Positions 3,197 through 18,834 of a stretch of DNA of 64,000 bases are shown piece by piece. Position 1 is the first letter of the stretch. Each line of letters starts with the position of its first letter. The notes under the pieces were generated by a model. That model made no database searches. It saw only the letters and a program-made list of their open reading frames with translations, and was not told where the DNA came from. The DNA comes from Candidatus Poribacteria bacterium (GTDB taxonomy: Bacteria > Poribacteria > WGA-4E > PCPOR2b), in NCBI GenBank assembly GCA_965218095.1, contig OZ244587.1:4765203-4829202 (forward strand), read 5' to 3'. Position numbers and translations under genes: made by a program.

Positions 3197-3526
3197 ATGA
3201 TGGTAAATGTTCAGGTAGTGTATGGGTTGATACGGCGGGTTGTTTTTGGAATTGAGAGACTTCCAATAGGGCGCAGGAGACAATCTTTGGAGAATCAAGC
3301 CATCAACTTGTTTGTGGGATTACCGTGTCTTGCAATCCCAGAGGAAACTGCCGATTACTATGCACAGATGAAAAGGCAAGCGGAACAACAGGGTATACCA
3401 CTGTCTGATAACGACCTTTGGATAGCTACCACTGCGATGACACTCAATGCAATTCTTGTCACTTCTGATTCAGACTTTCAGCGGATTGCCGGATTCGAGT
3501 TACAGCTTGAGGATTGGACAAGTTGA
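3197..3526 (+). pseudogene. vapC: PIN-domain (VapC-like) toxin remnant; only the C-terminal portion is recognisable
   Basis: ...LSDNDLWIATTAMTLNAILVTSDSDFQRI... matches a VapC C-terminus. The N-terminal 35 aa do not look like a PIN domain. No vapB partner is present. Confidence 0.4.
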
Positions 3527-3589
3527 TGAAGGGAAGGTTTGTCTTTCGGGTGTAAGGAGGAACTGAAGGAAGTGCATCGCACATATCAG

Positions 3590-4543
3590 ATGGCACGGAT
3601 TCTCAAAGTCGCAAGCCTTATCCGCCGTGACCCCAGAAAATGGAATCGCCCACGCCTCGCCCAAGAACTTCGCGTCAATAAAGCAACGATTTCGCGCTAC
3701 ATCGGCGAACTGCGCGAGATGGGAATGCAGGTTATTTCACATGGGCGTGGCGGTTACGAAATCATTACCGATATTTTTCTGCCTGAACTTAACTTTGATT
3801 GGGATGAAGCCCTTGGTCTGGTTACGGCAGCGAGTTTTTACAGGGCGAATGAAGGGCAACAGGCTCAAGGTACGCTTGACAGTGCCATCGCAAAAATTCG
3901 GACGAATCTACCCAAAGGTACTCAGCGCGTCCTGCAACAGATTGTTCCACAGATTGATGTTCCCGATTTTCAGGTGAGCCAGACCGATGAAAGTCAGCCG
4001 CAGCGCGAGACGCTATATGACGCGATTCGGGAACGCCTCAAAGTCAATATCGAATACAACTCCTTCAGCGGTGGAAAACGTAGGCGACATCGGCTTTCGC
4101 CCTATGCCGTCATGTTCCGCAAACGTGCCTGGTACGTCATTGGGCACTCTGAAACGTTCAATCGGATTCTGACCTTCCGCATCAACCGCATCCATTCCTT
4201 CTCTATCGGCCATACCCCCTACACGATTCCCGAGGATTTCTCTGTGCAGAGATACATGGAGAAAAGTTGGGATGTCATGCTCGGTCCGGAGACACACGTC
4301 GTCATCGAGTTCGCGCCACGCATCGCCCCGCTGATTCGAGAGGTGCGTTGGCATTCGACACAGCAGATACAGGAAAACGCTGATGGAGGACTTCGCTTTG
4401 AAGCCACAGTCGCAGGTTGGCTAGAAGTCGGCTGGTGGGTTTTGGGTTGGGGAGATGAGGCAGAAGTGATTGAACCGAGGGAATTGCGGGAGTGGGTCGC
4501 GCAGACGGCACGGAAGATGGTAAGGATGTATCGAAAAAATTAA
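3590..4543 (+). CDS. WYL-domain transcriptional regulator (HTH + WYL + C-terminal extension)
   Basis: N-terminal HTH (ARILKVASLIRRDPRKWNRPRLAQELRVNKATISRYIGEL). WYL-type core (RLSPYAVMFRKRAWYVIGHSETFNRILTFRINRI). The ORF track starts at 3539; the internal Met at 3590 is more likely. Confidence 0.8.
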   Translation: MARILKVASLIRRDPRKWNRPRLAQELRVNKATISRYIGELREMGMQVISHGRGGYEIITDIFLPELNFDWDEALGLVTAASFYRANEGQQAQGTLDSAIAKIRTNLPKGTQRVLQQIVPQIDVPDFQVSQTDESQPQRETLYDAIRERLKVNIEYNSFSGGKRRRHRLSPYAVMFRKRAWYVIGHSETFNRILTFRINRIHSFSIGHTPYTIPEDFSVQRYMEKSWDVMLGPETHVVIEFAPRIAPLIREVRWHSTQQIQENADGGLRFEATVAGWLEVGWWVLGWGDEAEVIEPRELREWVAQTARKMVRMYRKN

Positions 4544-4816: not shown

Positions 4817-4838
4817 GGGAACGGAGATCTCCGTTCCC
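4817..4838. promoter_or_regulatory. Perfect 22-bp palindrome GGGAACGGAGATCTCCGTTCCC, 25 bp upstream of the 4863 start codon; candidate operator
   Basis: Read directly. Flanked by the partly symmetric CGGAAATA / TACTTTTCCG. Followed by GGAGGA then ATG. Confidence 0.4.
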
Positions 4839-4862
4839 TACTTTTCCGAATAACGGAGGAAA

Positions 4863-5801
4863 ATGATGGCGACACAAAAAAGGAAGGCCTCACTTCAGAA
4901 CGCACTTCGTGGGCGTTTTGCGAAAAAAGGGTCTGCAGAACTAAAGTCGGATTTAAAAGGGTTGTTTGATACGTTGAGTGGTTATGAGCTTGTGGATGCG
5001 GTTATCGGGCGTGTGCAGCGTTATGCGGTGGAGGCATCCGGTAAGACGGTAGATCACGATTTCAGTCGGATGGAATTGTATGAAGCAGACGAGATTAAAA
5101 GGGGAATCCGTGATGAGTTGGTTTGGCACGTTTCGTCCTTTGTCTCAGATGTGCATCGGGAGTTTATCGTCCAGTGTCATGCGTGGGGGGGGGCTACTTC
5201 CGAAGCGGCTTTGGAGTTGATGAAGACAGACAAGGCGATAAATCGATTGGCGCAAGAGGACGCGATGGGTTGGAACGAACTTCGAGAAACGTTGATTCAT
5301 CGGTTGGCGTATCTGAAGCCGGGTTCGTCTCGGTGGCCTGAAAAGAAGTACGGCTTGGCCTGGCGTGAAGCACGGGAGGAGTATAAACAGGCGTTGAGTG
5401 ATATTCCGTTCACGTCTCGGGTGGAGCAGGTTGCGCTTTTAGCCAAACATGCTGAGCGAATTAACTATGAGCTGGATAATAGAATACATTCCGTGAAAGC
5501 TTTGCAAATGTTGACGAATTCGTTGGTAAAGACGGTAGAGAGTTTGCGGAAACTGTCGGCGGTTGATGAACAACAGATACCTGCGAATTTGTCTGCGCCT
5601 CAGCTTGTTGGGGTTCTGGAGCGGCTGACGCTTGCGCTGAGGGCGCCTGAGCAGAAGGCGATTGGCGGTGGGGCTGAGGAACTTGTTGGGGTTCTGGAGC
5701 GGTTAACGCTTGCGTTGAGGGCGCCTGAGCAGAAGGTGATTGGCAGTGGGGCGGAGGCTGTGCCTGCGGAGGCGGGTGGTGACGTGGGCGAGCCTGAGTG
5801 A
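4863..5801 (+). CDS. Hypothetical protein with an internal 25-aa (75-bp) tandem duplication near the C-terminus
   Basis: RBS GGAGGA. LVGVLERLTLALRAPEQK(A/V)IG(G/S)GAEE is repeated twice (5608-5757). No recognisable domain. Confidence 0.55.
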   Translation: MMATQKRKASLQNALRGRFAKKGSAELKSDLKGLFDTLSGYELVDAVIGRVQRYAVEASGKTVDHDFSRMELYEADEIKRGIRDELVWHVSSFVSDVHREFIVQCHAWGGATSEAALELMKTDKAINRLAQEDAMGWNELRETLIHRLAYLKPGSSRWPEKKYGLAWREAREEYKQALSDIPFTSRVEQVALLAKHAERINYELDNRIHSVKALQMLTNSLVKTVESLRKLSAVDEQQIPANLSAPQLVGVLERLTLALRAPEQKAIGGGAEELVGVLERLTLALRAPEQKVIGSGAEAVPAEAGGDVGEPE

Positions 5802-5933: not shown

Positions 5934-7235
5934 CTACGGCATGCTTGCAACGATATTTTGAACTTCCGTTTCTAATTCCAGGGTGATTTGCTGCGTGGTT
6001 TGTCTTTTCTCTTTTTTATAGGCTTCATAGGCATCCAGCAGATTTTGGGGCGTACCAATACGAACGAAAGCATCCAGGGGGCCTTTGGCTTTCGAGCGAC
6101 CAAAGACCTCCGCTTCAAGCCGTGTGATGACTTCCAGAAAGCGTTCTTGAGATGGATGTTCGCCGATGTACCCCTCGTAAATCGCAATAGAGTTGACAAT
6201 GCGGCGCAGGTCTGTGAAAAATTGTCGAAATTTGTCAAGGCGCTGTGTGTGAATCCCCTTCTCATATTTGGTCATCTCATCTACATCCCGGTAAATTTCC
6301 TCATTAATCTGGTTCTGAATGGCCCGAACTCGCCTTAGTGGATGCGAGTCTGGTTGAGGAACGATTCCCATGAAGTTCTCCATCTGTGACAGAATGTGTT
6401 CTTTCAACAGTTGAATTCGCTCATTAAGTGAACTATCTTCGCTCAGACGAAGTTGATATTCTTTCGCCAGCGTCATCAGCAGGCTCGCTCCCACATTCTT
6501 CACGCGGTCATACAATTCTGTAGGCGGATCGGTATGCTTAGGCAGGACGCTTTGTTCCAGATTCGTAAGTGCCTGCTCAATTTGACGCCACATATCTTTC
6601 TTGTAGATGTACTTTAGCCCGACAGGTACAAGATAGACAGGTTTGACATTACCCGCCTTTTCCATATCATTGAGTGCCCAGAATCCGAACTGTGCAATGC
6701 CACTTTCAAACGGCATAATCGTCTCGTTCTGATGCGAGATTTCTCCTTCGCCGAAGATAACTAACTTCTGCTCCCCTTTGGTCAGCGTTTCTCGTGTCAG
6801 CCGAAACGAATCCCGGTCTACGGCGCCACGCACGATTGAATAGGCGCCAAGCCTAGTCATGAAAAATCCTCTCCATTTCCCCCCAGCTAACTGGTCAAAG
6901 GTCTCTCGTGCTGTCATATAGCGAAACCGCTCCCCACAGCGTTTTGACACCGCAAACATCACATGTGGGTCAGCGTGGGTTGGATGATTCGGCACGAGAA
7001 TCGTTGAGAATCCATCAGTTGATTTCAGCCTATCGAGGGATGTTGCATCAATATCTAAATGTGAAACCTTCTGGGAAAGCCGCATGAGTAACGGTAACAT
7101 CAACTTGACGGTCCCGATCACGATTGCATTCTCTTTGGGCGGTTTGAAATCTAGCATCCGATCACTCCAAAACTCGATTTCTCTGGGATAGGTAGCAAGT
7201 TTGATTATTTTAAACGATCTCGGAAACAATGTCAA
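5934..7235 (-). CDS. Lysophospholipid (1-acyl-glycerol-3-phosphate) acyltransferase family protein
   Basis: HX4D acyltransferase motif (NHPTHAD). FGEGEIS block. Size 433 aa. Confidence 0.6.
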   Translation of the reverse strand: MTLFPRSFKIIKLATYPREIEFWSDRMLDFKPPKENAIVIGTVKLMLPLLMRLSQKVSHLDIDATSLDRLKSTDGFSTILVPNHPTHADPHVMFAVSKRCGERFRYMTARETFDQLAGGKWRGFFMTRLGAYSIVRGAVDRDSFRLTRETLTKGEQKLVIFGEGEISHQNETIMPFESGIAQFGFWALNDMEKAGNVKPVYLVPVGLKYIYKKDMWRQIEQALTNLEQSVLPKHTDPPTELYDRVKNVGASLLMTLAKEYQLRLSEDSSLNERIQLLKEHILSQMENFMGIVPQPDSHPLRRVRAIQNQINEEIYRDVDEMTKYEKGIHTQRLDKFRQFFTDLRRIVNSIAIYEGYIGEHPSQERFLEVITRLEAEVFGRSKAKGPLDAFVRIGTPQNLLDAYEAYKKEKRQTTQQITLELETEVQNIVASMP

Positions 7236-7299
7236 CCCGGAAATGCGGCGCCATGTTACCTCTGATTCCGTCCAATTCTTATCTTGTCAAGTATATCCG

Positions 7300-7460
7300 G
7301 GCTTCTAATGCGGAAACGATTGGCGGGGAGGCTGAGGTTGTGCCTGTGAAGGTGGGTGGTGACGTGGGTGAGCCGGAGTGAAGTGATTGAACCGAAGGAA
7401 TTGCGGGAGTGGGTCGCGGGGATAGCACGGAAGATGGTAACGGTGTATTTCAAAGCAAAA
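7300..7460. repeat. Chimeric duplicated fragment: a copy of the 3' end of CDS 4863-5801 fused to a copy of the 3' end of the WYL gene (4461-4543)
   Basis: 7318-7385 matches 5742-5807 (...GGDVGEPE*). 7381-7460 matches 4461-4540 (gaagtgattgaaccgagggaattgcgggagtgggtcgcg...). The junction is at a gaagtga microhomology. Confidence 0.7.
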
Positions 7461-7498
7461 CGATGATTTTGCCCTTGACCAAAAGGGCCGGTTCTGCT

Positions 7499-7595
7499 AC
7501 CATAATGGCGAGAATCTCGATTACGAGATTGAAATATGGTTGTGTTATATTTTGCCCTAATTGTATGATAAGAATCTCGATTGCGAGATTGAAAT
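7499..7595 (+). CRISPR. Orphan mini-array: two degenerate CRISPR repeats (psiR1 7499-7535, psiR2 7559-7595) around a 23-nt pseudo-spacer
   Basis: psiR1 matches the canonical 37-nt repeat at 27/37 positions, with the 3' 23 nt near-perfect. psiR2 carries GATTGCGAG. Both end GAAAT rather than GAAAC. Located about 640 bp upstream of cas3'. Confidence 0.7.
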
Positions 7596-7603
7596 ATTTT
7601 TAT

Positions 7604-7632
7604 TTGACTTGTTGGGTTGTCTATGTTATAAT
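7604..7632 (+). promoter_or_regulatory. Sigma70-like promoter (TTGACT, 17 nt, TATAAT) directly after the mini-array
   Basis: TTGACT at 7604-7609, a 17-nt spacer, TATAAT at 7627-7632. Confidence 0.5.
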
Positions 7633-7691
7633 TAGTTTATTGTGATGGTAGTGTTATATACTCAATTAGAATAAAAATACAAGGAAATCAA

Positions 7692-7931
7692 ATGCAACCC
7701 TTAAATCCATCTCTGGAAATTCAAGCACATTTAAAAAAAATAGATCGGGAGCAGTCTTATATTGAAGATCGGCATTATGAGATTGGTCAGACTGTAAATC
7801 TTTTAGAACGCGAGAATGCAGATTTACTTGATCGTTATAGCGATCTGGATTCGGCAAAGGAAATTTGCTACAGTGCACTCGCAGGCGACCCCGTCGCGAT
7901 TTGGGCGGAACTTCAGCGGTTCGGACTTTAA
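7692..7931 (+). CDS. Small hypothetical protein (79 aa) downstream of the mini-array and promoter
   Basis: ATG with AAGGAAA RBS 6 nt upstream. Predicted helical/charged. No known domain. Confidence 0.35.
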   Translation: MQPLNPSLEIQAHLKKIDREQSYIEDRHYEIGQTVNLLERENADLLDRYSDLDSAKEICYSALAGDPVAIWAELQRFGL

Positions 7932-8236
7932 GATTGTGGGAAATGCGTCTGGAGAAACCTAGTTTTTCGGCAAAACTGGGAATGGGGCAATCAATTACAT
8001 TCTTAAACAGACGAACCGCAAAAAAAGCAGGGCCTACATCCACCGCCAAGGATGGGTTCGGTCCTGCGCATCGTTATTATAGCATTCAACTCAAGATAGG
8101 TCAAATCCTTTTCAAAAGATTTTAACAAAAATGAGATTCGGCGAGATTTTTTTTGATTAGTTGCAGGTTTGTGCGACTGATCGTATGTTATCATGTTCTC
8201 GGTTACTGGAAAATCCGATGAAATGGAGGGTTTAGA

Positions 8237-10330
8237 GTGATTAAACTTAGAGTCAAACCTGTATACTCTCGAAAGGCGGAAGTTGTTCCCATCAAGAACG
8301 GCCCCGAAGGGCTTGAGTTTCGACAACACCAAGTCGAAACCTATAAAGCGATTCAGGATCCAGATGTAGATGTGATCTTCAATAGGGCAATGACCGGTGA
8401 TGGAAAAAGTTTAGCCGCGTATCTTCCCGCGCTGACGGAAGGCAGGTCAATCCTAGCTATGTACCCAACTAACGAATTAATCAAAGATCAAGAACGACAA
8501 GTGCAGGGATACTGCCAGTGGTTTGAGCAAAATATTGCCTGCGACAAGATGTTTGGGGAACGGCTGTACAAACTTCGTGCAGAATTGACAGATCTACGCG
8601 GGCAAAAAGCCGCGATTGAACTTTTGGCTCTAAAGAATCCAATTCTACTCACAAATCCGGATATCTTTAATCTAATCGCCAATTTTCACTATCTGAACCC
8701 CGAATATGAAAACCCAGATCAGTTGGTACAGCACATTATCGACTATTATGATCTGTTTATCTTCGACGAGTTTCATATCTATGATGTCTCGCAGGTCATC
8801 TCTGTTCTGACAACCATGTTGTATTTCATCGAGCAGGGACGTGGCAAATTCAATCAGAAAAAGTTCGTCTTTCTCTCTGCGACACCGAGCCCACTCCTGC
8901 TGGATTGTTTGGAGAAGGTGAATCTCCGATACAAAATCATCGAAGGGTGTTATCAATTCGATGAACTGGATTCAGCGAATTGGGACGGAATCTGCGCGCC
9001 ATTCGACTTACATTTCCACGCAACGGGTCGCCGTACCGAAGAATGGGTCGAAAACCATTATCAGCAAATCGCCGAGTGGTTTGCCGATAATCCGAATTCA
9101 CGTGGGGCAATTATTGTCAACTCGGTTGCAGCGGCGAAACGAATTTCCTTGTTTCTCAAAGAACGAAACGTGGCGGGGGATTTTCCTCTGAACGTTGGCG
9201 AAAATACTGGACTCAGCAGTCGGGAAGAACGACGTTTTGCTCTCCACGAAAGTGACCTGCTCATCGGGACCTCAACGGTAGATGTCGGTGTTGACTTCAA
9301 AATCAACTTTCTTGTCTTTGAGGCGATAGACGCAGGTTCGTGGATTCAAAGGCTTGGACGGCTTGGTCGGCATTCAGAATACGCAACACCTGACGGGGCG
9401 GTTATGAAGTTTGACCGTTTCGTTGCTCACTCGCTTCTGCCCAAATACGTCTACGAACGGATTGAGCAAGTCGTCACGTCGGATTCAGAAATTGACAAAG
9501 GGACTCTGATTGACCTCATGCGAAGTGAGGATGAGAATAAACGGATTTTCTCTCCCATCAACGATTTTCGCAACTATAAAAAGTCTTGGGGTTGGTTGCA
9601 CGCTTCGCATATCATCAACACTTTGGGGCATCCACGATTGCGCGAAAACTATGCACCCCAGCGAGAAAAACTCACGAAGGTCTATACCGACATTTTCGAG
9701 GCGGATATCGAAACGCGAGCAACAAAATGGTATTTCGCTGTTAAAAATAAACGGCCGGAAATCATTGATTCTGCTGTGATTCAATTTCGTGGTGAGACAC
9801 CTTTCACATGTGGAATCATTGATGAAACAGATGGCGAGGTGAAAGACTACAATCTCCTGTGGACGTTAAGCAACGCCGAAGTCGAATTCATGGACAAGAC
9901 GGATTTCATGCAAGAAATCCAATCGCGGGGAATTCCACCCCGTCAGTTTCGGTCCGTTGGCATCTATCTCCGATTACATGGATATCGCTCAGAGCGAGAG
10001 CGTTTTCACCTGACTCAGAGCCGCAAGATTGGGAAGCAGTTTACTGACGAAGATTACCGTCAGTTGCATACGCTCAAGGGGTTTGAGATTGATGGTAATT
10101 TTCCAGAAATTAACAAAATCAATCGTTGGTTGCGCATAAAACCGCATCTTTGCCTTGTTTGTAAAGAGCCGTTGGGTGATTTACGGCGGCTGTTACGTCT
10201 GCCGATGATGTTTTCCATTTTCTCGCTACTTGATCGGGATGGTAACGAATTCAGCGTCGTATTTTCAAAGGACGCGCTCTTGTTACATTCTCAGCCCTAC
10301 ATTTGGGCGAAGGAGGATTCTAATGGCTGA
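8237..10330 (+). CDS. cas3': CRISPR-associated helicase Cas3' (type I-D; no HD domain)
   Basis: GTG start with a GGAGGG RBS. Helicase motif I MTGDGKS, DExH box FDEFH, motif VI QRLGRLGR. No HD motif. First gene of the cas operon. Confidence 0.8.
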   Translation: MIKLRVKPVYSRKAEVVPIKNGPEGLEFRQHQVETYKAIQDPDVDVIFNRAMTGDGKSLAAYLPALTEGRSILAMYPTNELIKDQERQVQGYCQWFEQNIACDKMFGERLYKLRAELTDLRGQKAAIELLALKNPILLTNPDIFNLIANFHYLNPEYENPDQLVQHIIDYYDLFIFDEFHIYDVSQVISVLTTMLYFIEQGRGKFNQKKFVFLSATPSPLLLDCLEKVNLRYKIIEGCYQFDELDSANWDGICAPFDLHFHATGRRTEEWVENHYQQIAEWFADNPNSRGAIIVNSVAAAKRISLFLKERNVAGDFPLNVGENTGLSSREERRFALHESDLLIGTSTVDVGVDFKINFLVFEAIDAGSWIQRLGRLGRHSEYATPDGAVMKFDRFVAHSLLPKYVYERIEQVVTSDSEIDKGTLIDLMRSEDENKRIFSPINDFRNYKKSWGWLHASHIINTLGHPRLRENYAPQREKLTKVYTDIFEADIETRATKWYFAVKNKRPEIIDSAVIQFRGETPFTCGIIDETDGEVKDYNLLWTLSNAEVEFMDKTDFMQEIQSRGIPPRQFRSVGIYLRLHGYRSERERFHLTQSRKIGKQFTDEDYRQLHTLKGFEIDGNFPEINKINRWLRIKPHLCLVCKEPLGDLRRLLRLPMMFSIFSLLDRDGNEFSVVFSKDALLLHSQPYIWAKEDSNG

Positions 10331-13292
10331 ACAACCTCAACCTGATTTCCTGGGGATTTCAGAGAGTTCCCAAGAAACACAAGAAATCCACGCACAAATC
10401 GCATTGCTGAAAAACGCCGTTGACCCAGACGATTTTGTCTTGACAGACTACGTCGAGACAGTTGTACCGCAGATGCTGGACGAATACACGCTCCGTTCAG
10501 CGAAAGGAAGCACGGTTTGGGCGTCCAATCACGACCAAAGTATGCTCGCGCATATTCTCAACGGCATCTTTCCAACGCTCACGATTGTGCGAATTGCCGG
10601 GCAACCGTTGAGTGAACTAGACGAGCGGCTCTACCTGATTGCCTATTCGTTTCATGACATTGACAAACTCATAGACATCCGTGATTTGAGTGTCTCTGAT
10701 GCGGAGAAGTCTGAGCAATTTTACAGCTACCTTGATGAATGGGTTGCGAAACTCCATTTTGATAAATTCTGTCCAGATTACGAAGATTACCGCGGAGACA
10801 TTGCATATCTCATTCTCAACACGCAGAAGAAATACGGTGCAAACCTCAATTTGCAGAGTTACGATTCGCGCCTACCGGGGCGACGACGCCAGTTTTTGCG
10901 GGAGATGTGTACCGCATCAGACCTTATCGCCTATTTTCTGAAGAATCCGAGTGGATTTCGAGAACAGGCGAATGCCCGTGAATCTCTCGTCAAGCTCAGC
11001 GGTGGGAAACTCGAATTCGCCTATCACAAACTCGCTGAGAATCGCGGTATGATTACGAATGTCATCAACAACGCCTTGCTCAGAATCCTGCGTGACCGAT
11101 TGGGATGGAAACCGTTTCTCTTCTTCCCAACAGGTGTCACATATTTGCGAAAGTGGTTAAGCGAAGAGAGCAACTTGCCGACACAGGATGAAATTGCCGA
11201 GGATGTTGAAAAACAGCTCATTGCATACTGCGCCGGGCGATTAGAGGCGAACCTCAACGGATTTACGCGAGATGGGAAGGGATTTAAGTTTCCCGATTAC
11301 TATTACGATTTCTTCCAACTTCCTGAACTACTCCAACTCATTCGCAAAGGATGCTTCAGGATACTGCACGAGAATAAGTCACCCTCTGCTGGGAAGCGAC
11401 TACAGAAGCTGCTTCAACTTCAGAAAAAAGGTGATATTCCCCCTGATGTCAATCTCCATTTTGAAGAGGATATGCGCGTTGACCAACTTGCGGAATATCT
11501 CTACGAAATCGAGAAACACGTTGGCGCAATAACGAGCCGTGAGGCGGTATCTTCTGAGATTATCACGATTTTGGATACGCAAGAATATCAGACTGACTTT
11601 GAAGCGATTCCACGCGATAATCGGGCAGGCGGTGTGCCGCTACATTGGTATTTCCTCGCAGGCAAATACTTGATGAAAAATCTTGGGCTTGATGCGAATC
11701 AGATGGAAGATTTGTTTGCAGACATTGCCAATCAGGTTGTGACAACATTCGAGGGAGAAATTGAACATCGCGAGGTGGAGAAGGAAGGGTTCAGTGTACT
11801 CCGCGAATATGTTCGAGAAATTGTCGATATCAATGGACACAGTGAGATCGAACGCGACTTTGAAGCGGAATTGGACCGATACACAAACACGAAGAAAAAA
11901 GGGCGTGGCTCGAATGCGGGTTGTTCTCTCTGTTCGTCAACGTTTGAAACAAGCAAGCAACGAGACACGTCGGTCATCTTCGCCAACCAAGTCTACAGTA
12001 ACAAGAACTTGCTCAACTCCTCATTGCTCGTCCGCGGCATCTGTGAATTGTGCGAGGTCGAAATGATGCTCCGACAAATCATGATACGCTCGAAATTGCG
12101 GCTCGTGGGCGGTGGGTATGATGACGTCAAAATCAAGTGGCTGTATCTCTATCCGAGCTACTTTTTCACGACAGAGACAGCGAAGTTTGTCGGCAACGCA
12201 TATCGGCAGATGAAGAACTTGAATTTCTTTGACGTGCGGAAAGCGTTACACAAAGGAATGGCAGTGAGGGATTTCATCAATTTAGATGAAATGGTCATTG
12301 ACACCGAAATTCCGAACCCTGACGATGATTATCTGCTCAAGATGGAGTTCGACACCAACGACCTTGCAACCTTCTACTTCTGCGGAATCCCGACGCTCGG
12401 CAAAAGCCCCACCGATACAGAATCGTGGGCATTACCGACTTTTCTCGGTCTGCTTATGCCATTAGTGTTCAATGCGAAGGTCGTTGTGACCGAGTCGCAG
12501 ATTCCACTCTATCACAGCAGCGAGGAGTGGAAAGAGACAGTTGTTCTCAATGCCCCCCATCCGTTTGTGAAGCACATTCTAGGCACAGTCGAAATCCGCA
12601 TTGACCAGATCGAAGCGGCTTTGAAGAAGATTGTTGCTGCCTACGATATGAATATTGATGTATTCCAAAAGGATGGTAAACCGCAGTGGCAACACCTCAA
12701 CGAAATTGGGCGGAACATTGACACAGACCCACTTTACGTTTTTCATTATCTCGAAGCGTTTCGCCGGAAGCAGGGTTGGGACAGTTTCCCCAAACCCCGT
12801 GATGGCGAATCATCAATCCCGGAACGATACATCCAAACTTATCACCATATTGGAGGTGACAAGATGAGTCTCATTGAAGAAGTCGCCAAACGGTGCTTCA
12901 AATTTTACGGACCCGATAACTTCAAGCCGAACAGTGTCTTGAAGGTGATTACGCTGGTTGAAGACGTGATTGTCAACAGCGAGTCGAAAATTAACGCAAC
13001 TGATCTAAAATACCAAGCCATTGGCGAGGTAAGTAACCTGATGCAACGGATTCGGTCAAGTCGTGCCCAAGGCTACGCTCGGCTCCACCCTAGAGATGAA
13101 GAACCATCAGCTATTCACGAATTTGTTGAATATTTTTATAACGTGGTGTTTGCTGAATATTACGATGGCGAGCGCGGTATGCTTCGTCAACGTCGCAACC
13201 GCTTTAATGCGGGTGTCAACGCATGGTATCAGGTAAACTGGCGTCAATTCCAAACGAAAAAGGCAAAGGAGGAAAACAATGCCGACAATTGA
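10323..13292 (+). CDS. cas10d: Type I-D large subunit Cas10d with an N-terminal HD-nuclease-like motif
   Basis: About 990 aa. N-terminal H...HD motifs (MLAHIL ... SFHDIDK). Four-Cys zinc finger (CSLC...CELC). The ATG at 10323 has an AAGGAGG RBS and overlaps the cas3' stop; the ORF track's 10230 start is less likely. Confidence 0.7.
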   Translation: MAEQPQPDFLGISESSQETQEIHAQIALLKNAVDPDDFVLTDYVETVVPQMLDEYTLRSAKGSTVWASNHDQSMLAHILNGIFPTLTIVRIAGQPLSELDERLYLIAYSFHDIDKLIDIRDLSVSDAEKSEQFYSYLDEWVAKLHFDKFCPDYEDYRGDIAYLILNTQKKYGANLNLQSYDSRLPGRRRQFLREMCTASDLIAYFLKNPSGFREQANARESLVKLSGGKLEFAYHKLAENRGMITNVINNALLRILRDRLGWKPFLFFPTGVTYLRKWLSEESNLPTQDEIAEDVEKQLIAYCAGRLEANLNGFTRDGKGFKFPDYYYDFFQLPELLQLIRKGCFRILHENKSPSAGKRLQKLLQLQKKGDIPPDVNLHFEEDMRVDQLAEYLYEIEKHVGAITSREAVSSEIITILDTQEYQTDFEAIPRDNRAGGVPLHWYFLAGKYLMKNLGLDANQMEDLFADIANQVVTTFEGEIEHREVEKEGFSVLREYVREIVDINGHSEIERDFEAELDRYTNTKKKGRGSNAGCSLCSSTFETSKQRDTSVIFANQVYSNKNLLNSSLLVRGICELCEVEMMLRQIMIRSKLRLVGGGYDDVKIKWLYLYPSYFFTTETAKFVGNAYRQMKNLNFFDVRKALHKGMAVRDFINLDEMVIDTEIPNPDDDYLLKMEFDTNDLATFYFCGIPTLGKSPTDTESWALPTFLGLLMPLVFNAKVVVTESQIPLYHSSEEWKETVVLNAPHPFVKHILGTVEIRIDQIEAALKKIVAAYDMNIDVFQKDGKPQWQHLNEIGRNIDTDPLYVFHYLEAFRRKQGWDSFPKPRDGESSIPERYIQTYHHIGGDKMSLIEEVAKRCFKFYGPDNFKPNSVLKVITLVEDVIVNSESKINATDLKYQAIGEVSNLMQRIRSSRAQGYARLHPRDEEPSAIHEFVEYFYNVVFAEYYDGERGMLRQRRNRFNAGVNAWYQVNWRQFQTKKAKEENNADN

Positions 13293-14286
13293 AATTCCGA
13301 AAGAGCTCGTTCCCGAAAATTATTTTTTGAATCGAATTCCGAAAGCCCCAACGGGGCGTTATGCACATCTGATTGTGGTTCGTGAAACAGAGTCGTTTCC
13401 CGTTTTTCAAACAGATGGCACGCTCAACATTGCCAAGGTCAAGGCAGGTTTGCAAAATGGCGATTCGCTCATACGCCTTGCGATGTTCAAGCGGAAACAG
13501 AGTTCGCCAGAGCGACTTACTGGACGCGAATTGCTGAGAAGCACAGGCATTACACAGAATGAAGATGCCGGCGAAGATAACTACTGTGACTACAACGAGC
13601 AGTTCTGTACGACCTGCCCCGACTGCGTTTACTACGGGTTCGCAATCGGTGATTCTGGCTCTGAAAAATCAAAGGTGTATGTTGATACCGCCTATTCGAT
13701 TACAGGCTACGATGAGTCACATCAGCAGTTTTCATTCAACGCGCTGTATGAAAAAGGGAACATGAGTCAGCATGGCGAAGTTCGCTCTAGCTTTGGCGAA
13801 CAAGACCACATCGTACCACAAGTTTTCTTTCCCTCTATCATTACCATTAAGGATGTGATGGTCAACAGTTTTGCCTACGTTTTGAACAACGTGCTACGAA
13901 CGAAACGTTACGGCGCGCAGACGACACGAACCGGACGACTTGCCAATCATATCGTCGGAGCGGTATTTGCTGATGGTGAGATCTTTTCAAATCTTAAATT
14001 CACGCAAGCCATCCACGATGCGTTGGGCAACGACAAGGACGAAACGCCGTTGAATCCTGAGAAAGTTTTTCAAACGGCTCGATTAACCACATCCGAGCTC
14101 TTGAAGGATGACGGTGTGAACTATCATCTACTTGAGGAAGAAAACCTGCAAGAGTTACTTGGCATCGTCAAGTCCGCGACAACGGATGAAGAAAAACTTC
14201 ATCAACTTTTGCAGGAGGCAAACGCCGAGACGCAGGAATACTCCGAACGAGTGATTCAAAAGGCATCAAACAAAAAGAAAAAGTAG
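13279..14286 (+). CDS. csc2: Cas7 backbone subunit (Csc2-type, type I-D)
   Basis: 335 aa. AAGGAGG RBS. Overlaps the cas10d stop. Four-Cys cluster CDYNEQFCTTCPDC. Position and size match Cas7d. Confidence 0.6.
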   Translation: MPTIEIPKELVPENYFLNRIPKAPTGRYAHLIVVRETESFPVFQTDGTLNIAKVKAGLQNGDSLIRLAMFKRKQSSPERLTGRELLRSTGITQNEDAGEDNYCDYNEQFCTTCPDCVYYGFAIGDSGSEKSKVYVDTAYSITGYDESHQQFSFNALYEKGNMSQHGEVRSSFGEQDHIVPQVFFPSIITIKDVMVNSFAYVLNNVLRTKRYGAQTTRTGRLANHIVGAVFADGEIFSNLKFTQAIHDALGNDKDETPLNPEKVFQTARLTTSELLKDDGVNYHLLEEENLQELLGIVKSATTDEEKLHQLLQEANAETQEYSERVIQKASNKKKK

Positions 14287-14295
14287 GAGGGACCG

Positions 14296-14991
14296 ATGCA
14301 AGTCACGAGATGCCGCCTTATCCTGCACGACTCTCTCTACTACGCGACTCGTGAGATGGGGCGACTGTACGAGACGGAGAAGGTCATCCACAATTGGGCG
14401 TTGACGTATGCGCTCGGTTTGATTCAAAAGCCGTATAGATCATTTAACAGCGTTCCAACTTATCAGGAGGACCTCACACCAATCAATGCGGCAGGTGTCT
14501 ATGTGACACCTGCCAAACCGATTCATTATGATTATATAATCAGTACCTTCAAATTCGCGGACAATCGACATCGCCCGTTTTCAACTGTCAGCAATACGCG
14601 AAAAAGGGAGTTGAAGATTACTGTGACGAACAAACCATCTTTCGGCAAGGCGAAGGAACTTGCGCCGGAGAGCGAGTTTGAATTTTTCATCATGGGTAAA
14701 TTGCCCGAACGGGTCCCGAAGTGGATCCGGTTGGGATTGTGGATGAGCAAAGCAAAAATCGAAATCAAAGATCGTCAGGACTTGACCGTTCAACGGGGTC
14801 AATTTACATGTCCTCACTTGTTGAATCCGCTAGATCTTTCAATTCGGCCGCAACTCTATGATCTGATCTCGATGCCGCCGGTGAGTCTTCTTCAAAATGT
14901 GACTTTGACAGGCGAGTACGTTGCGTTTCAGAGAGAGCAAGAAACAGTTTGTTTACCAGCCACAATGAGATATTTTGCAAACTCAACTTAG
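14296..14991 (+). CDS. csc1: Cas5 subunit (Csc1-type, type I-D)
   Basis: 231 aa. TAGGAGGG RBS. Lies between cas7 and cas6 as in I-D operons. Assigned mainly by synteny. Confidence 0.5.
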   Translation: MQVTRCRLILHDSLYYATREMGRLYETEKVIHNWALTYALGLIQKPYRSFNSVPTYQEDLTPINAAGVYVTPAKPIHYDYIISTFKFADNRHRPFSTVSNTRKRELKITVTNKPSFGKAKELAPESEFEFFIMGKLPERVPKWIRLGLWMSKAKIEIKDRQDLTVQRGQFTCPHLLNPLDLSIRPQLYDLISMPPVSLLQNVTLTGEYVAFQREQETVCLPATMRYFANST

Positions 14992-15848
14992 AAAAGTTCA
15001 CCATGCCCATCAGCACCGTTATCTACCTCATCCCCCCCGAAGATGTCACACTTCGTCCGACGATGGGGCATCACGCGCACGCTGCGTTCCTATCGCTGTT
15101 GCGAATTGGCAATCCGGAAAAAGCGGAAGAAATTCACGCCACATCCGCGCAGAAACCGTTTACTGTTTCGCCGCTGATTGGTAAAGGCGAACGACGTGGG
15201 GATTTCCTGCACATCCGCGCTGGAACGGAATGCTGGCTCCGCTTTACGTTCCTCGACGATGAACTCTTCGCCTACTTCGGCAACGCCTTCTTGACACAGC
15301 AACTGCCGTCCATCCGCATCGGACAGGCGATGTTTCAACTCAGCCGATTGAATTCATCTGGGACAGAGGGTAAAGATTGGAGCGGCGCAAGAACCTACGA
15401 AGACCTAATTGAATCTGCGCGGACAGACACTCGGATTCAGATGCGATTCCATTCGCCGACCGCCTTTCGGGAACTGACTCCGCACGGGCGAAAAACACGC
15501 AATCAAGCAAATATTGACCTGCAACGTTGCTATCAGAGTTGGGTCAACAAATGGAATGCCTTCGGACCGATGCAGATTGATAAGCAACGCCTTCTCGATT
15601 TCGTGGTCGGTCACGCCGGGCTGACCACAGTTGAGGCCAAGAGCCGGATGCTCGATTTCGGCAGACATAAGGCGGTCGGATTTGTTGGAAATTGTGCATA
15701 CCAATTTTTCGTGAAGCGTCAATCCGATGATGAGGGTAACATTGAGATGTTACGTTTGGTGAACCTGCTCGCCGATTTCGCCTTTTACTGTGGCACCGGC
15801 TACAAAACGACGATGGGGATGGGACAGACGCGGCGACGACAATCCTGA
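14949..15848 (+). CDS. cas6: Cas6 crRNA endoribonuclease
   Basis: C-terminal glycine-rich loop GTGYKTTMGMGQ typical of Cas6. The start may be the downstream Met at 15003. Confidence 0.75.
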   Translation: MFTSHNEIFCKLNLEKFTMPISTVIYLIPPEDVTLRPTMGHHAHAAFLSLLRIGNPEKAEEIHATSAQKPFTVSPLIGKGERRGDFLHIRAGTECWLRFTFLDDELFAYFGNAFLTQQLPSIRIGQAMFQLSRLNSSGTEGKDWSGARTYEDLIESARTDTRIQMRFHSPTAFRELTPHGRKTRNQANIDLQRCYQSWVNKWNAFGPMQIDKQRLLDFVVGHAGLTTVEAKSRMLDFGRHKAVGFVGNCAYQFFVKRQSDDEGNIEMLRLVNLLADFAFYCGTGYKTTMGMGQTRRRQS

Positions 15849-16208
15849 TCACGAGATTGACATCAGATCGACATCAAGTGCCTCGGCAATCGCCTTCAAC
15901 GTTTTGACGGAACCGGACTTTCGTCCTGTCTCAATCCCCGCTAAATATGCACGTTGAATGCCGGTTTTATCCGCAAGTTGCTTCTGTGTGAGTCCCCGGT
16001 ACTCGCGATACACCTTGATCGGATTCTCCTCATTGAGAATCAGCCGATTAATCACCTCGCCGGGGAAGGTTTCCTCATCAATGGCTTTCGCCCTACGAAA
16101 ATCACGAATGTCTCTAAGCATCTCCGCATCTGCAAGGAGTTGGTCGTAATGCTCTATCGGTACAAGGGCAAATTTCTGACCTTCTATTTCTACTGTTTCA
16201 AGGCTCAT
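15849..16208 (-). CDS. higA: XRE-family HTH antitoxin (HigA-like)
   Basis: HTH LTQKQLADKTGIQRAYLAGIETGRKS. ATGA overlap with the upstream toxin gene. Confidence 0.75.
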   Translation of the reverse strand: MSLETVEIEGQKFALVPIEHYDQLLADAEMLRDIRDFRRAKAIDEETFPGEVINRLILNEENPIKVYREYRGLTQKQLADKTGIQRAYLAGIETGRKSGSVKTLKAIAEALDVDLMSIS

Positions 16209-16462
16209 TTATACACACCGCCTCTCGGTCCAATTTTTACGATTTCAAGTACAAAGGTGTCATCATGGAGTTCATACAGCACTCGCCAGTCACCCACTCT
16301 GAGCCGGTATCCCGGCTCACCTGTTAGGCGTGTTATATTATTGTTCGGCGCGTAAGGATTCTCAGCAAGTTGGTTAATCTTCCCAACAACGGTTTTCGCT
16401 ACATTACTGGGCATCCGCTGGAGCATCTTCATCGCGCTTGCTCGATATCGAATCTGATACAT
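16205..16462 (-). CDS. higB: RelE/ParE-family toxin (HigB-like)
   Basis: ...KLTGEPGYRLRVGDWRVLYELHDDTFVLEIVKIGPRGGVYK is a RelE/ParE signature. The toxin-first order is typical of higBA. The start is set at the internal Met; the ORF track extends to 16501. Confidence 0.75.
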   Translation of the reverse strand: MYQIRYRASAMKMLQRMPSNVAKTVVGKINQLAENPYAPNNNITRLTGEPGYRLRVGDWRVLYELHDDTFVLEIVKIGPRGGVYK

Positions 16463-16547
16463 GATGCCCCTTATTGTAGCTAAAAGCAACCTGAAAATCA
16501 AGCATTTCCGTTACACACCCCGTTCCACAAATCTGGAGTATTAAACC

Positions 16548-18230
16548 ATGTCCGAAACCTACATACCGCTTTCGCAGATAAACACCTATGTCTTCTGCCC
16601 GCGCCGATTCTACTACGAATCCGTTGAGGGCCATCAGGTGATTAACGAGCATGTCGAAGAGGGGAAGATCAAACACGCCCGCGTTGATACGGAGATGAAA
16701 GGTCGCAACGAGCGCGGGGTGAAGGTCTCGCGTCGACAATACCTCGCCTCTGATGCACTTGGTGTCTCCGGTTATCTCGATCTAATTGAAGAGAAGGACG
16801 GTGTGCCGTATCCGGTCGAATACAAGAAAGCCGGCACCGGCAACTGGCTCAACGATCAGGTTCAACTCTGTCTACAAGGGATGCTAATCGAAGAGAGCAC
16901 TGGCATTGAGGCGCCTCACGGCTATATCTACTACATCGGCTCCAAACGCCGCCGAAAGGTGGTCTTTGATGACGAACTGCGGCAGACCAGTCTCGACTTT
17001 GTCTCTAACGCCGAATCGCTGTTGCAGACAAGAAAGATTCCCGAACCGGTCCACGACAACCGGTGTAACGGGTGTAGCGTCCGAGGCATCTGTCTTCCAG
17101 ACGAGGTTGCCTATCTCCATGAATTAGACGATCGACCAAAACGCATCAAACCTGTGCTTGGGATCGATAACGTGCTGTATGTCGATGAAGCGGGCTGTAT
17201 ACTCAAAAAAACTGGGGAACGCCTGCTCGTTGTCAAAGAGGGAGAAACCATCCGCGACATTCCGCTCATCCATCTCGGCCAGGTTGTGCTTTGTGGCAAC
17301 ATCAGTGTGACGACCCCGGTGATGCAAACCCTGCTCAACGAGGGGATTCCGGTTGTTTACCTGTCTGCGTACGGACGCTATCAGGGAACGCTTACGCCGA
17401 AAATCTCCCGAAACTCACTCCTGCGCGTCGCTCAACATCGGATCGCGGATGACCCGGAAAAGTGCCTCGCGCTCGCGAAAGCGTTTGTACATGGCAAAAT
17501 CACGAACATGCGGATGATGCTCCAGCGTCGGAAATGGCGGAACAGAACGACCAACGACAAAGATCTCGATTGCGAAGTTGAAACAAACGGAATCGAAACT
17601 GAGGACAGGCACGCCGACATTTTATCGAGCATTAAGGGACTCGCTGCGATGCGCCGGAAGATTCCCAAAGCGGAACGGCTCCCTGAACTGCTTGGTATTG
17701 AAGGTAACGCCTCTGCCGCGTATTTCCAATCGTTTTCCGCCATGCTCAAACCAGAAATGGGATTTGACTTTGAACGCCGCTCCCGCCGACCACCCGCGGA
17801 TGCGACCAATTCGTTGCTTAGTTTTGCCTACTCGCTATTGACAGCGGATCTGATTTCCGCCATCCAGCTTGTCGGACTCGACCCATACGTGGGGTTCTTC
17901 CATCAACAGAATTACGGGCGTCCCTGCCTCGCATTAGACCTCATGGAGGAGTTCCGTCCGATCATCGCCGATTCAGTTGTGATTACGCTCATCAACAAAC
18001 GGCAGATTAAACCGGATGACTTCACCCAATCGCACGGCGGCTGGTTCCTCAAAGACGCCGCCCGCAAGCGGTTCTACGCCGCCTACGAGGGACGCAAAAA
18101 TGAGACGATTACACACCCTGTCTTCAAGTACAAAATCAACTTTCGCCGTGCAGTCGAATTACAGGTACGATTGCTTGCCAAGTGTCTAATGGGAGAGATT
18201 GAAACCTACACGCCGCTGACAGTTCGATAG
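16548..18230 (+). CDS. cas4-cas1: Cas4-Cas1 fusion protein (adaptation)
   Basis: N-terminal Cas4: Cys in FCPRRFYY plus the C-terminal CNGCSVRGIC cluster (4-Cys Fe-S), and a PD-(D/E)xK core (DLIEE...EYKK). C-terminal about 330 aa is Cas1-like. Confidence 0.85.
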   Translation: MSETYIPLSQINTYVFCPRRFYYESVEGHQVINEHVEEGKIKHARVDTEMKGRNERGVKVSRRQYLASDALGVSGYLDLIEEKDGVPYPVEYKKAGTGNWLNDQVQLCLQGMLIEESTGIEAPHGYIYYIGSKRRRKVVFDDELRQTSLDFVSNAESLLQTRKIPEPVHDNRCNGCSVRGICLPDEVAYLHELDDRPKRIKPVLGIDNVLYVDEAGCILKKTGERLLVVKEGETIRDIPLIHLGQVVLCGNISVTTPVMQTLLNEGIPVVYLSAYGRYQGTLTPKISRNSLLRVAQHRIADDPEKCLALAKAFVHGKITNMRMMLQRRKWRNRTTNDKDLDCEVETNGIETEDRHADILSSIKGLAAMRRKIPKAERLPELLGIEGNASAAYFQSFSAMLKPEMGFDFERRSRRPPADATNSLLSFAYSLLTADLISAIQLVGLDPYVGFFHQQNYGRPCLALDLMEEFRPIIADSVVITLINKRQIKPDDFTQSHGGWFLKDAARKRFYAAYEGRKNETITHPVFKYKINFRRAVELQVRLLAKCLMGEIETYTPLTVR

Positions 18231-18541
18231 CGGTTGTAGGGGCAATGCCTTGTGCTTGCCCATAGTAGAGGTGAGATTGAAACCTACACGCCGCTGACAG
18301 TTCGATAGCGGTTGTAGGGGCAATGCCTTGTGCTTGCCCATAGTAGAGGTGAGATTGAAACCTACGCGCCACTGACAGTTCGATAGCGGTTGTAGGGGCA
18401 ATGCCTTGTGCTTGCCCATAGTAGAGGTGAGATTGAAACCTACGCGCCACTGACGGTTCGATAGCGGTTGTAGGGGCAATGCCTTGTGCTTGCCCATAGT
18501 AGAGGTGAGATTGAAACCTACGCGCCACTGACGGTTCAATA
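18194..18541 (+). repeat. 78-bp tandem repeat, about 4.4 copies, starting inside the last codons of cas4-cas1
   Basis: Unit GAGATTGAAACCTAC(A/G)CGCC(G/A)CTGAC(A/G)GTTCGATAGCGGTTGTAGGGGCAATGCCTTGTGCTTGCCCATAGTAGAGGT, with starts at 18194, 18272, 18350, 18428 and 18506. Each unit contains two hairpins and the 11-mer GAGATTGAAAC, identical to the 3' end of the CRISPR repeat. Confidence 0.9.
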
Positions 18542-18561
18542 GGCTGTCGGAGGAGAAACCG

Positions 18562-18834
18562 ATGTTTTACGCAGTTGCCTATGATATTACCAATGACCGG
18601 CGGCGAAACGCAGTTGCCAAAATTTTGCTAGATTTCGGCACACGCATCCAATATAGTATATTTGAGTGCAACACCGATCGACGCGCTTACCTCCGGCTAC
18701 AAGATCGGCTTCAGGATGCCATCAATCCCAAGGAGGATGCTGTGACTTTCTATCATCTCTGCCGGTCCTGCGAGAAGGGGATCGAACGGATTGGTATCAA
18801 AAAAGGAATTGACAAAGCCGCGTATATCGTTTAG
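18562..18834 (+). CDS. cas2: Cas2
   Basis: MFYAVAYDITNDRRRNAVAKILLDFGTRIQYSIFEC is canonical Cas2. 90 aa. GGAGGAG RBS. Confidence 0.85.
   Translation: MFYAVAYDITNDRRRNAVAKILLDFGTRIQYSIFECNTDRRAYLRLQDRLQDAINPKEDAVTFYHLCRSCEKGIERIGIKKGIDKAAYIV

Follow-up and report, generated by a model that had tools for sequence, protein, structure and literature searches.

Degenerate CRISPR (short palindromic repeats, clustered and regularly interspaced) mini-arrays that lie beside cas (CRISPR-associated) genes have been described in several settings, and one such element, found in a 64-kb stretch of Candidatus Poribacteria DNA (contig OZ244587.1; the whole stretch is called the window below), is analysed here. 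In CreTA modules, known from the type I-B system of Haloarcula hispanica and from type I-F systems of Acinetobacter and Pseudomonas, a degenerate two-repeat creA yields a CRISPR RNA (crRNA)-like RNA, and Cascade represses an adjacent strong-promoter gene through partial complementarity that depends on a protospacer adjacent motif (PAM) (PMC8501985; bioRxiv 10.64898/2026.06.02.729485). CreR stems from a degenerate mini-CRISPR that neighbours the cas genes and guides the effector to a site close to a promoter; creA-like elements are listed for type I-D among other subtypes, and autoregulation has been shown experimentally for types I-B, I-E and V-A (Liu et al., 2023; bioRxiv 10.1101/2023.03.10.532045). 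Type I-D mini-arrays near cas3 and cas10d have been predicted together with PAM-flanked partial targets, which lie at the cas10d promoter and at the promoters of cargo genes; cargo promoters are the targets in two Cas3 clades, and in one of these clades the cargo is located upstream of the locus (Shmakov et al., 2023; bioRxiv 10.1101/2023.03.03.530964, later Nucleic Acids Research). The initial annotation of the window, made from its sequence, held that no such module had been described for type I-D, a claim that these two studies overturn by predicting or listing I-D elements. No experimental test of a type I-D regulatory mini-array was found in the literature searched. More distantly, the small CRISPR-associated RNA (scaRNA) and tracr-L of type II systems (Francisella, Streptococcus pyogenes) are repeat-derived RNAs that turn the effector into a repressor through partial complementarity, but these systems are class 2, with a single Cas9, guides derived from trans-activating CRISPR RNA, and a different anatomy and pairing rules.

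The element in the window consists of two degenerate repeats (psiR1 and psiR2) around a 23-nucleotide (nt) pseudo-spacer (psiS) and is followed by a strong promoter and a small open reading frame (ORF79), ahead of a complete type I-D system in which cas10d (csc3), csc2 (cas7d), csc1 (cas5d), cas3' and cas6 were all found. On sequence evidence, the mini-array is, with a probability of roughly 0.78, a functional regulatory gene that derives from CRISPR and belongs to the CreA/CreR (crRNA-like RNA) class. A guide of this kind, directed to a PAM-flanked promoter site, had been proposed in the initial annotation, and the proposal finds strong support in the target now located, its conservation in 17 loci and the covariation of guide and target. 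One of the closest likenesses is to the predicted type I-D mini-arrays, with which the present locus shares the subtype, the two-repeat layout, tolerated mismatches at position 6, a partial seed match with the cognate PAM, and a target at the promoter of a non-cas gene between mini-array and cas operon. Their cargo, however, comprises toxin-antitoxin genes, transcriptional regulators and variable genes in a gene-shuffling hotspot (Shmakov et al., 2023), whereas here a single conserved family of 79-amino-acid (aa) coiled-coil proteins holds a fixed position across I-D and I-B operons. Both those cases and the present locus are computational predictions. The targets of CreR sit next to the promoter of the effector cas genes themselves, and no other gene lies between; here the target belongs to the ORF79 promoter, about 590 nt ahead of cas3', and none is present at the cas-proximal promoter. 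CreTA differs in subtype (I-B or I-F, not I-D) and in payload, the characterised CreT toxins being small RNAs that are tRNA-sequestering or codon-based, in contrast to the conserved protein encoded by ORF79.

The repeats and the pseudo-spacer lie on the plus strand within the stretch given in the initial annotation, all of whose listed sequence features are present at their stated coordinates: psiR1 at 7499-7535, psiS (ATGGTTGTGTTATATTTTGCCCT) at 7536-7558 and psiR2 at 7559-7595. The mini-array sits 640 nt upstream of cas3' and, in agreement with that annotation, 11.5 kb from the main array, which starts at 19067 beyond all cas genes. Relative to the 37-nt main-array repeat (CGATCAATGATAAGAATCTCGATTACGAGATTGAAAC), psiR1 has nine mismatches and psiR2 seven, almost all of them within the 5' 13 nt. 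The 23-nt core that comprises hairpin and handle (GAATCTCGATTACGAGATTGAAA) contains no mismatch in psiR1 and one in psiR2, and when the window was shuffled 100 times, a core match at three or fewer mismatches never appeared. The 7-bp hairpin of the true repeat forms in both copies (AATCTCG-ATTA-CGAGATT in psiR1), which keep the 8-nt handle (ATTGAAAT) intact and end in GAAAT, the array repeat ending in GAAAC; the described retention of the 3' stem-loop and handle thus holds. The pseudo-spacer, at 23 nt, is shorter than the spacers of the main array (35-43 nt).

A promoter for the mini-array itself is predicted at 7475-7503 on the plus strand (TTGACC-17-TACCAT, TG extension), with a -10 box that overlaps the degenerate 5' end of psiR1, and related loci have a TTGACC/TTGACT-17-TATTAT promoter in the equivalent position. 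The psiR2 hairpin (7573-7590) and its T-rich tail also score as an intrinsic terminator for the mini-array transcript; promoters and a terminator-like site at psiR2 are likewise predicted in the related locus L006. In relatives the psiR2 hairpin is preserved by compensatory changes from G:C to A:U (CTCG...CGAG becomes CTCA...TGAG), and the handle that follows psiR2 is free to decay, as in L006. Degeneration is limited to those parts that a crRNA-like RNA does not need. The 10-mer ATTTTGCCCT occurs both at the 3' end of the pseudo-spacer (7549-7558) and at 7466-7475, just ahead of the -35 box of the mini-array promoter, so the recurrence reported earlier is real; it is weakly recognisable in related loci and not clearly conserved. 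The copy at 7466-7475 is part of a GCCCTT..AAGGGC hairpin. A scan of 7000-8400 against Rfam, with E values up to 1, gave no family.

The predicted target of the pseudo-spacer lies at 7642-7667 on the plus strand and consists of a GTG PAM (7642-7644) and a protospacer (7645-7667). Within the complementary stretch 7645-7659 the target (ATGGTAGTGTTATAT) agrees with the pseudo-spacer (ATGGTTGTGTTATAT) in 14 of 15 bases, positions 1-5 and 7-15 matching and position 6 being the sole mismatch. This site is the best match to the pseudo-spacer in the whole window when both strands are scanned. When a GT PAM is required within 7000-8300, none of 2000 shuffled spacers exceeds 12/15. The initial annotation had recommended an alignment that demands a 5'-GTN PAM; the target is this site, and not the GGTTGT and GTTATA similarities in the promoter spacer that it had pointed out, which lack a proper PAM register and fall far below the site at 7645. 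The promoter concerned (7604-7632, plus strand, sigma-70-type TTGACT-17-TATAAT) is as annotated, carries a TG extension, scores 11/12 and is conserved in related loci. The target begins 50 nt downstream of psiR2 and 10 nt past the -10 box, at the start of the ORF79 transcript, of which it spans roughly +4 to +29 as predicted. Type I-D systems read a 5'-GTN-3' PAM on the non-target strand, and their guides carry an 8-nt 5' handle and have every sixth base flipped out and tolerant of mismatches (PMC10212523). The target agrees with these established rules, which counts in favour of a Cascade guide.

The same arrangement, which the initial annotation had suggested looking for in related genomes, recurs in all 16 related loci gathered (labelled within L001-L018), each with an ORF79 homologue, so that 17 loci including the window were compared. 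Scans of genome contigs returned two loci, both from Candidatus Poribacteria, and scans of metagenome contigs one partial locus. Target sites in the related loci were picked with a GT PAM required, a choice that affected L007, L008 and L013. In 17 of 17 loci the cassette is the same: a promoter, the mini-array, a second promoter with the target and an ORF79-family gene, ahead of a type I cas operon. The cassette promoter is always of the sigma-70 type with its -10 box overlapping the start of psiR1, and it is followed by psiR1, a pseudo-spacer of 22-25 nt, psiR2, a T-run, a strong promoter and, 28-50 nt before the start codon, a stretch that matches the pseudo-spacer and is flanked by GTN. The PAM is GTG, GTT or GTC in every locus. 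Of the cells for positions 1-5, 7-11 and 13-14 in the 16 unique guide/target pairs, all except one are matched; 15 pairs carry a mismatch at position 6 and ten at position 12. In nearly all loci the pairing stops at one of positions 14-17; L018, the only pair with matches beyond position 17, extends to 19-20 and is mismatched at position 18.

The seeds fall into eight haplotypes with eight variable positions, for example ATGGTTGTGTTATA, ATGATTTTGTTATG, ATAGTTGGGTTCAT, ATGGTTGCGTCACA and ATATTAGCGTCATA, and each haplotype is mirrored by its own target (143 of 144 paired cells matched). Guides share on average 11.92 matches with their own target and 8.73 with the targets of other loci, and when guides were permuted against targets the observed sum was reached in 0 of 100000 permutations. 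Pairing blocks of 5 nt, free positions between them and a cognate PAM are what Cascade binding predicts, which excludes a decayed remnant, the alternative left standing in the initial annotation and contradicted by this covariation and by the constancy of the GTN PAM.

The target precedes ORF79 (7692-7931, plus strand), which encodes a conserved, acidic coiled-coil protein of 79 aa behind an AAGGAA ribosome-binding site, matching the annotated frame. Its homologues are 72-82% identical and each is exactly 79 aa long. Pairwise ratios of nonsynonymous to synonymous divergence (dN/dS) are 0.1-0.5, with dS ranging from near zero to saturation and from about 0.4 to above 2 for most pairs. The low dN/dS and the constant length identify ORF79 as a real protein-coding gene under purifying selection, and for the same reasons it does not fit the small-RNA pattern of CreT. 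Among 1.8 billion representatives, a profile search turned up no more than 16 relatives, and in some of these the domain is duplicated in tandem; two loci with ORF79 relatives are titled Candidatus Poribacteria. AlphaFold models ORF79 as one long helix (residues 6-63) with a short C-terminal helix (predicted local distance difference test, pLDDT, 88.6), and a tandem-duplicated relative as an antiparallel hairpin of two 60-residue helices (pLDDT 92). Because the duplicated protein folds in this way, ORF79 is probably, according to these models, an antiparallel coiled-coil dimer. Its most conserved part is the C-terminal motif AL-G-P--IWAELQRFG. Single-domain members are soluble and acidic, with isoelectric points of 4.2-5.1; acidity is not shared by the tandem-duplicated relatives. 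Pfam, NCBIfam, PADLOC and PHROGs gave nothing meaningful for ORF79 and its family, a sequence-profile search of the PDB with ORF79 gave only coiled-coil and tetratricopeptide-repeat noise, and Foldseek comparisons of the ORF79 model and of the duplicated relative with the PDB gave only generic coiled coils. A tblastn search with ORF79 found no match in phage and plasmid records, and there is hence no sign that it is an anti-CRISPR of a mobile element. The initial annotation named the small frame as the candidate toxin or regulated gene: the second part agrees with the position of the target, and for the first the data give no sign of a toxin; the protein is a conserved, soluble coiled coil, unlike the known RNA toxins of CreT.

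A mechanism can be proposed in which the mini-array would be transcribed from its own promoter at 7475-7503, whose -10 box would have overwritten the 5' end of psiR1, with the psiR2 hairpin and T-run also terminating the transcript. Cas6 would cut at the two conserved hairpins and release a short crRNA-like RNA composed of the handle AUUGAAAU, the 23-nt pseudo-spacer and the psiR2 hairpin. Type I-D Cascade loaded with this RNA would recognise the GTG PAM, and the guide would pair along the protospacer's first 15 bases, 14 of them matching, a few bases past the -10 box of ORF79. With a short guide and roughly 14-16 paired bases, the R-loop should remain incomplete, Cas3' should then not be recruited, and Cascade would act as a repressor, not as a nuclease. 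Long-term persistence of the target suggests that the site may escape cleavage. ORF79 would thereby be silent as long as loaded Cascade is present, and would be released upon loss of Cascade, its inhibition by an anti-CRISPR or its titration by other crRNAs.

Several observations weigh against this account. That the RNA is transcribed and processed, that it represses without cleavage and what ORF79 does are inferences from the DNA sequence, and the hosts, Candidatus Poribacteria, are known from metagenome-assembled genomes and are uncultured according to the records. ORF79 shows no toxin-like domain, membrane segment or DNA-binding fold. L013 and L014 have the target about 55-60 nt downstream of the best promoter, which implies a roadblock there and not promoter occlusion. 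Finally, L011 (676-6487) and L014 (5477-11288) carry the same cassette ahead of a type I-B effector operon for which no PAM preference is known, and the GTN PAM is unexplained unless an I-D complex is also present or Cas8b reads GTN. The type I-B calls for these two loci come from PADLOC models, which find Cas8b, Cas7b, Cas5b and then Cas3; NCBIfam and Pfam gave nothing for these genes. The mini-arrays of both loci belong to the same repeat family and are accompanied by an ORF79-family gene and by the palindrome and cas promoter described below, and L014 also has a WYL regulator. Three kinds of effector operon stand behind the cassette, namely I-D with cas3' first (window, L006, L012), I-D with cas10d first (L001-L004, L018) and I-B (L011, L014), which suggests that effector modules have been exchanged behind a conserved regulatory head.

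Two alternatives would deprive the mini-array of its function in DNA targeting. The degenerate repeats, the short spacer and the missing leader are what a functionless leftover of an earlier array or ectopic integration event would look like, its match to the promoter being due to chance or to shared AT-rich composition, and stand-alone repeats do arise sporadically (Shmakov et al., 2023). Such a remnant would nevertheless not be expected to persist in 17 loci across the full range of ORF79 dS; a single recent transfer of near-identical copies is excluded by these divergence values. Nor would it maintain eight covarying haplotypes of seed and target with a match that no permutation equals, an invariable GTN PAM, hairpins upheld by compensatory changes and a degeneration confined to parts dispensable for a crRNA-like RNA, and this explanation is scarcely credible. 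The conserved hairpins alone might also belong to a decoy RNA that soaks up Cas6 or Cascade, with DNA targeting incidental; RNA anti-CRISPRs that mimic repeats exist in phages (PMC10651486). A decoy, however, would need no conserved pseudo-spacer, no PAM-flanked target and no covariation, all three of which are present, and the element is chromosomal, lies inside the cas locus of its host and has no ORF79 homologue in phage or plasmid records, which makes a decoy highly improbable.

What ORF79 does once released may be considered against the DNA that separates it from the cas genes. A hairpin with a 20-bp stem and a U-rich tail follows ORF79 in L005, L006 and L012; it is degenerate in the window and in L001-L004, the upper 9 bp being left in the window (7958-7980, plus strand). 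Behind it, a segment of ~120 nt is inserted in the window, L001-L004 and L009 and is absent from L005, L006, L011 and L012. Its core (8020-8104, minus strand) comprises a strong, near-consensus promoter (TTGACC-17-TATAAT, TG; 8104-8076), a 41-nt hairpin (8067-8027) and a U7 tract (8026-8020). The 41-nt hairpin is 100% identical in L001-L004 and L009, loci that have otherwise diverged, and has no match in Rfam; neither the rest of the window nor viral contigs contain a further copy. The segment could encode a small RNA of roughly 50 nt convergent with ORF79, or could be a terminator. In every locus a T-rich tract then leads to an imperfect palindrome of 30 bp, with an extended -10 box just before the first cas gene; in the window this cas-proximal promoter occupies 8154-8194 on the plus strand, with the palindrome at 8154-8183 and the extended -10 box TGTTATCAT at 8186-8194. 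A scan of both strands of the window found no pseudo-spacer target at this promoter. Covariation within the palindrome shows no excess over shuffles; the palindrome may act as an operator in DNA or, in RNA, as a hairpin or terminator. Apart from the palindrome, a consensus scan of the window and of L006 called no plus-strand terminator between ORF79 and the cas genes, so that read-through from the one into the others could occur.

Three roles for ORF79, which can overlap, are ranked as follows. The first, a CreT-like guard that arrests growth when Cascade fails, is put forward tentatively. The second is autoregulation of the CreR type, in which ORF79 would be the first cas cistron, the targeted promoter would read through into cas3', and Cascade would repress its own synthesis. 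In all three operon architectures ORF79 is co-oriented with the cas operon and immediately upstream of it, the intervening DNA has no called terminator besides the palindrome, the stop codon in L017 is just 16 nt from the palindrome, and CreR targets usually adjoin the promoter of an effector gene, with I-D on the list (Liu et al., 2023). Against this, a separate, conserved extended -10 promoter without a target precedes cas3', cas10d or cas8b in every locus; the hairpin with its U-rich tail follows ORF79 in L005, L006 and L012, the inserted segment with its strong hairpin and convergent promoter parts ORF79 from the cas genes in the window and L001-L004, and an insertion sequence (IS) element does so in L007. 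Autoregulation is regarded as somewhat unlikely. The third role, placed lower still and rather unlikely, is that of a relay, in which ORF79 would be a coiled-coil adaptor or anti-repressor acting on the WYL regulator or on the palindrome of the cas promoter, so that lower occupancy by Cascade would indirectly increase the expression of cas genes and CRISPR. Small proteins that inhibit DNA-binding proteins are often acidic, soluble, dimeric coiled coils, a description that suits the single-domain members of the family, which are acidic, soluble and probably dimeric, but not the tandem-duplicated relatives, which are not acidic. The WYL regulator, the mini-array, ORF79 and the palindrome with the cas promoter also stay together while the effector module behind them is swapped (I-D with cas3' or cas10d first, I-B), and WYL regulators are known partners of type I-D systems (PMC10212523). 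The interaction itself is only putative, however, covariation in the palindrome, being no better than in shuffles, does not separate a DNA operator from an RNA hairpin, and no known regulator family matched ORF79.

A wider proposal, offered tentatively, is that ORF79 founds a new family of Cascade-controlled protein effectors, either the first protein guard of the CreT type or a coiled-coil relay that signals the occupancy of Cascade to the WYL-controlled cas promoter; under both readings the WYL regulator, the mini-array, ORF79 and the operator would form a portable head cassette, re-used before I-D and I-B operons. Self-regulating CRISPR elements are already known; new here are a conserved family of coiled-coil cargo proteins that heads the cas operon in a fixed position, the extent of the evidence from covariation and a cassette common to I-D and I-B, and ORF79 has not previously been described as a regulated protein. 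Through regulatory mini-arrays, CRISPR effectors double as programmable repressors of host genes, a role so far only predicted for type I-D. The eight covarying guide/target pairs, an exceptionally clean data set, amount to a natural mutational scan of the type I-D seed rules, from which 5-nt pairing blocks, free positions 6, 12 and 18, a GTN PAM and, for most pairs, a paired length of about 14 bases can be read out, and they supply precise designs for reconstitution; that the hosts are known only from metagenomes is a practical limit. The locus also points to a conserved small protein with expression that would depend on the presence of Cascade; should it prove to be a guard toxin, a sensor of anti-CRISPRs or a regulator in a feedback loop, the CreTA/CreR concept would be carried over from RNA to protein payloads.

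IS elements cluster near the cassette in related loci. In L010 one (8190-8361) replaces the C-terminal motif of the ORF79 homologue, in L005 another (6412-8051) splits cas3', and in L007 a third (4828-5604) lies between ORF79 and cas3'; the mini-array and its target are intact in all three. With regard to an addiction to Cascade, these insertions are suggestive at most.

Upstream of the mini-array, at 7380-7465 on the plus strand, lies the 3' remnant of a WYL/WCX regulator gene (..EVIEPKELREWVAGIARKMVTVYFKAKR*), the translation of which resembles the C-terminus of the intact WYL protein encoded at 3539-4543. In related loci a WYL/WCX gene or remnant is found directly upstream of the mini-array, and the remnant in the window marks the ancestral order of WYL regulator and mini-array. 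The region 7300-7465 contains short 3'-end remnants of two genes that are intact further upstream, the WYL/WCX regulator and a gene of 312 aa (4863-5801, ..GGDVGEPE*); an acyltransferase gene (5934-7235, minus strand) separates the intact genes from the remnants. Such an arrangement suggests that an ancestral order of WYL regulator, unknown gene and mini-array was duplicated or rearranged.

Downstream, the type I-D operon cas3'-cas10d-csc2-csc1-cas6 opens with cas3' (8237-10330, plus strand), continues with cas10d (10230-13292), csc2 (13279-14286) and csc1 (14296-14991) and ends at 15848 with cas6 (14949-15848). Its genes match NCBIfam models TIGR03174, TIGR03157, TIGR03159, TIGR03158 and TIGR01877 and, in Pfam, Csc2. 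A cas4-cas1 fusion (16548-18230) and cas2 (18562-18834) follow, and past all cas genes comes the main array (19067 to about 23940, plus strand), with 63 repeats and spacers of the length given above. A ParE-family toxin gene and its helix-turn-helix (Xre-type) partner (15849-16501, minus strand) are inserted between cas6 and cas4-cas1, a PIN-domain gene (3197-3526) lies directly upstream of the intact WYL regulator, and a gene for PglZ of the bacteriophage exclusion (BREX) system occurs near related loci. The ParE/Xre pair, the PIN-domain gene and the PglZ gene of the related loci mark the region as a defence island.

Repeat-like sequence is also found in other parts of the I-D locus. At the leader-distal end of the main array (22882-23940) the repeats are degenerate (T8C, AATC to ACAC, loop A to G) and two gaps, of 66 and 212 nt, are abnormally long. 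The loop A to G variant occurs as well in psiR2 and in a repeat-like stretch inside cas1. That stretch, a 37-nt sequence at 17548-17584 within the coding sequence of cas4-cas1 (CGACCAACGACAAAGATCTCGATTGCGAAGTTGAAAC), is identical to the CRISPR repeat in 29 of 37 positions, is in frame and has a partly broken hairpin, and its location is an unusual one for a repeat-like sequence. Lastly, a 78-bp unit is repeated 4.5 times with 98% identity at 18195-18542, from the last codons of cas4-cas1 (stop codon ending at 18230) onwards, and fills the gap to cas2. Each unit opens with GAGATTGAAAC, which corresponds to the CRISPR repeat's final 11 nt, the 8-nt handle among them, and the period is close to the length of one repeat plus one spacer; slippage or an integrase-linked process are possible origins.

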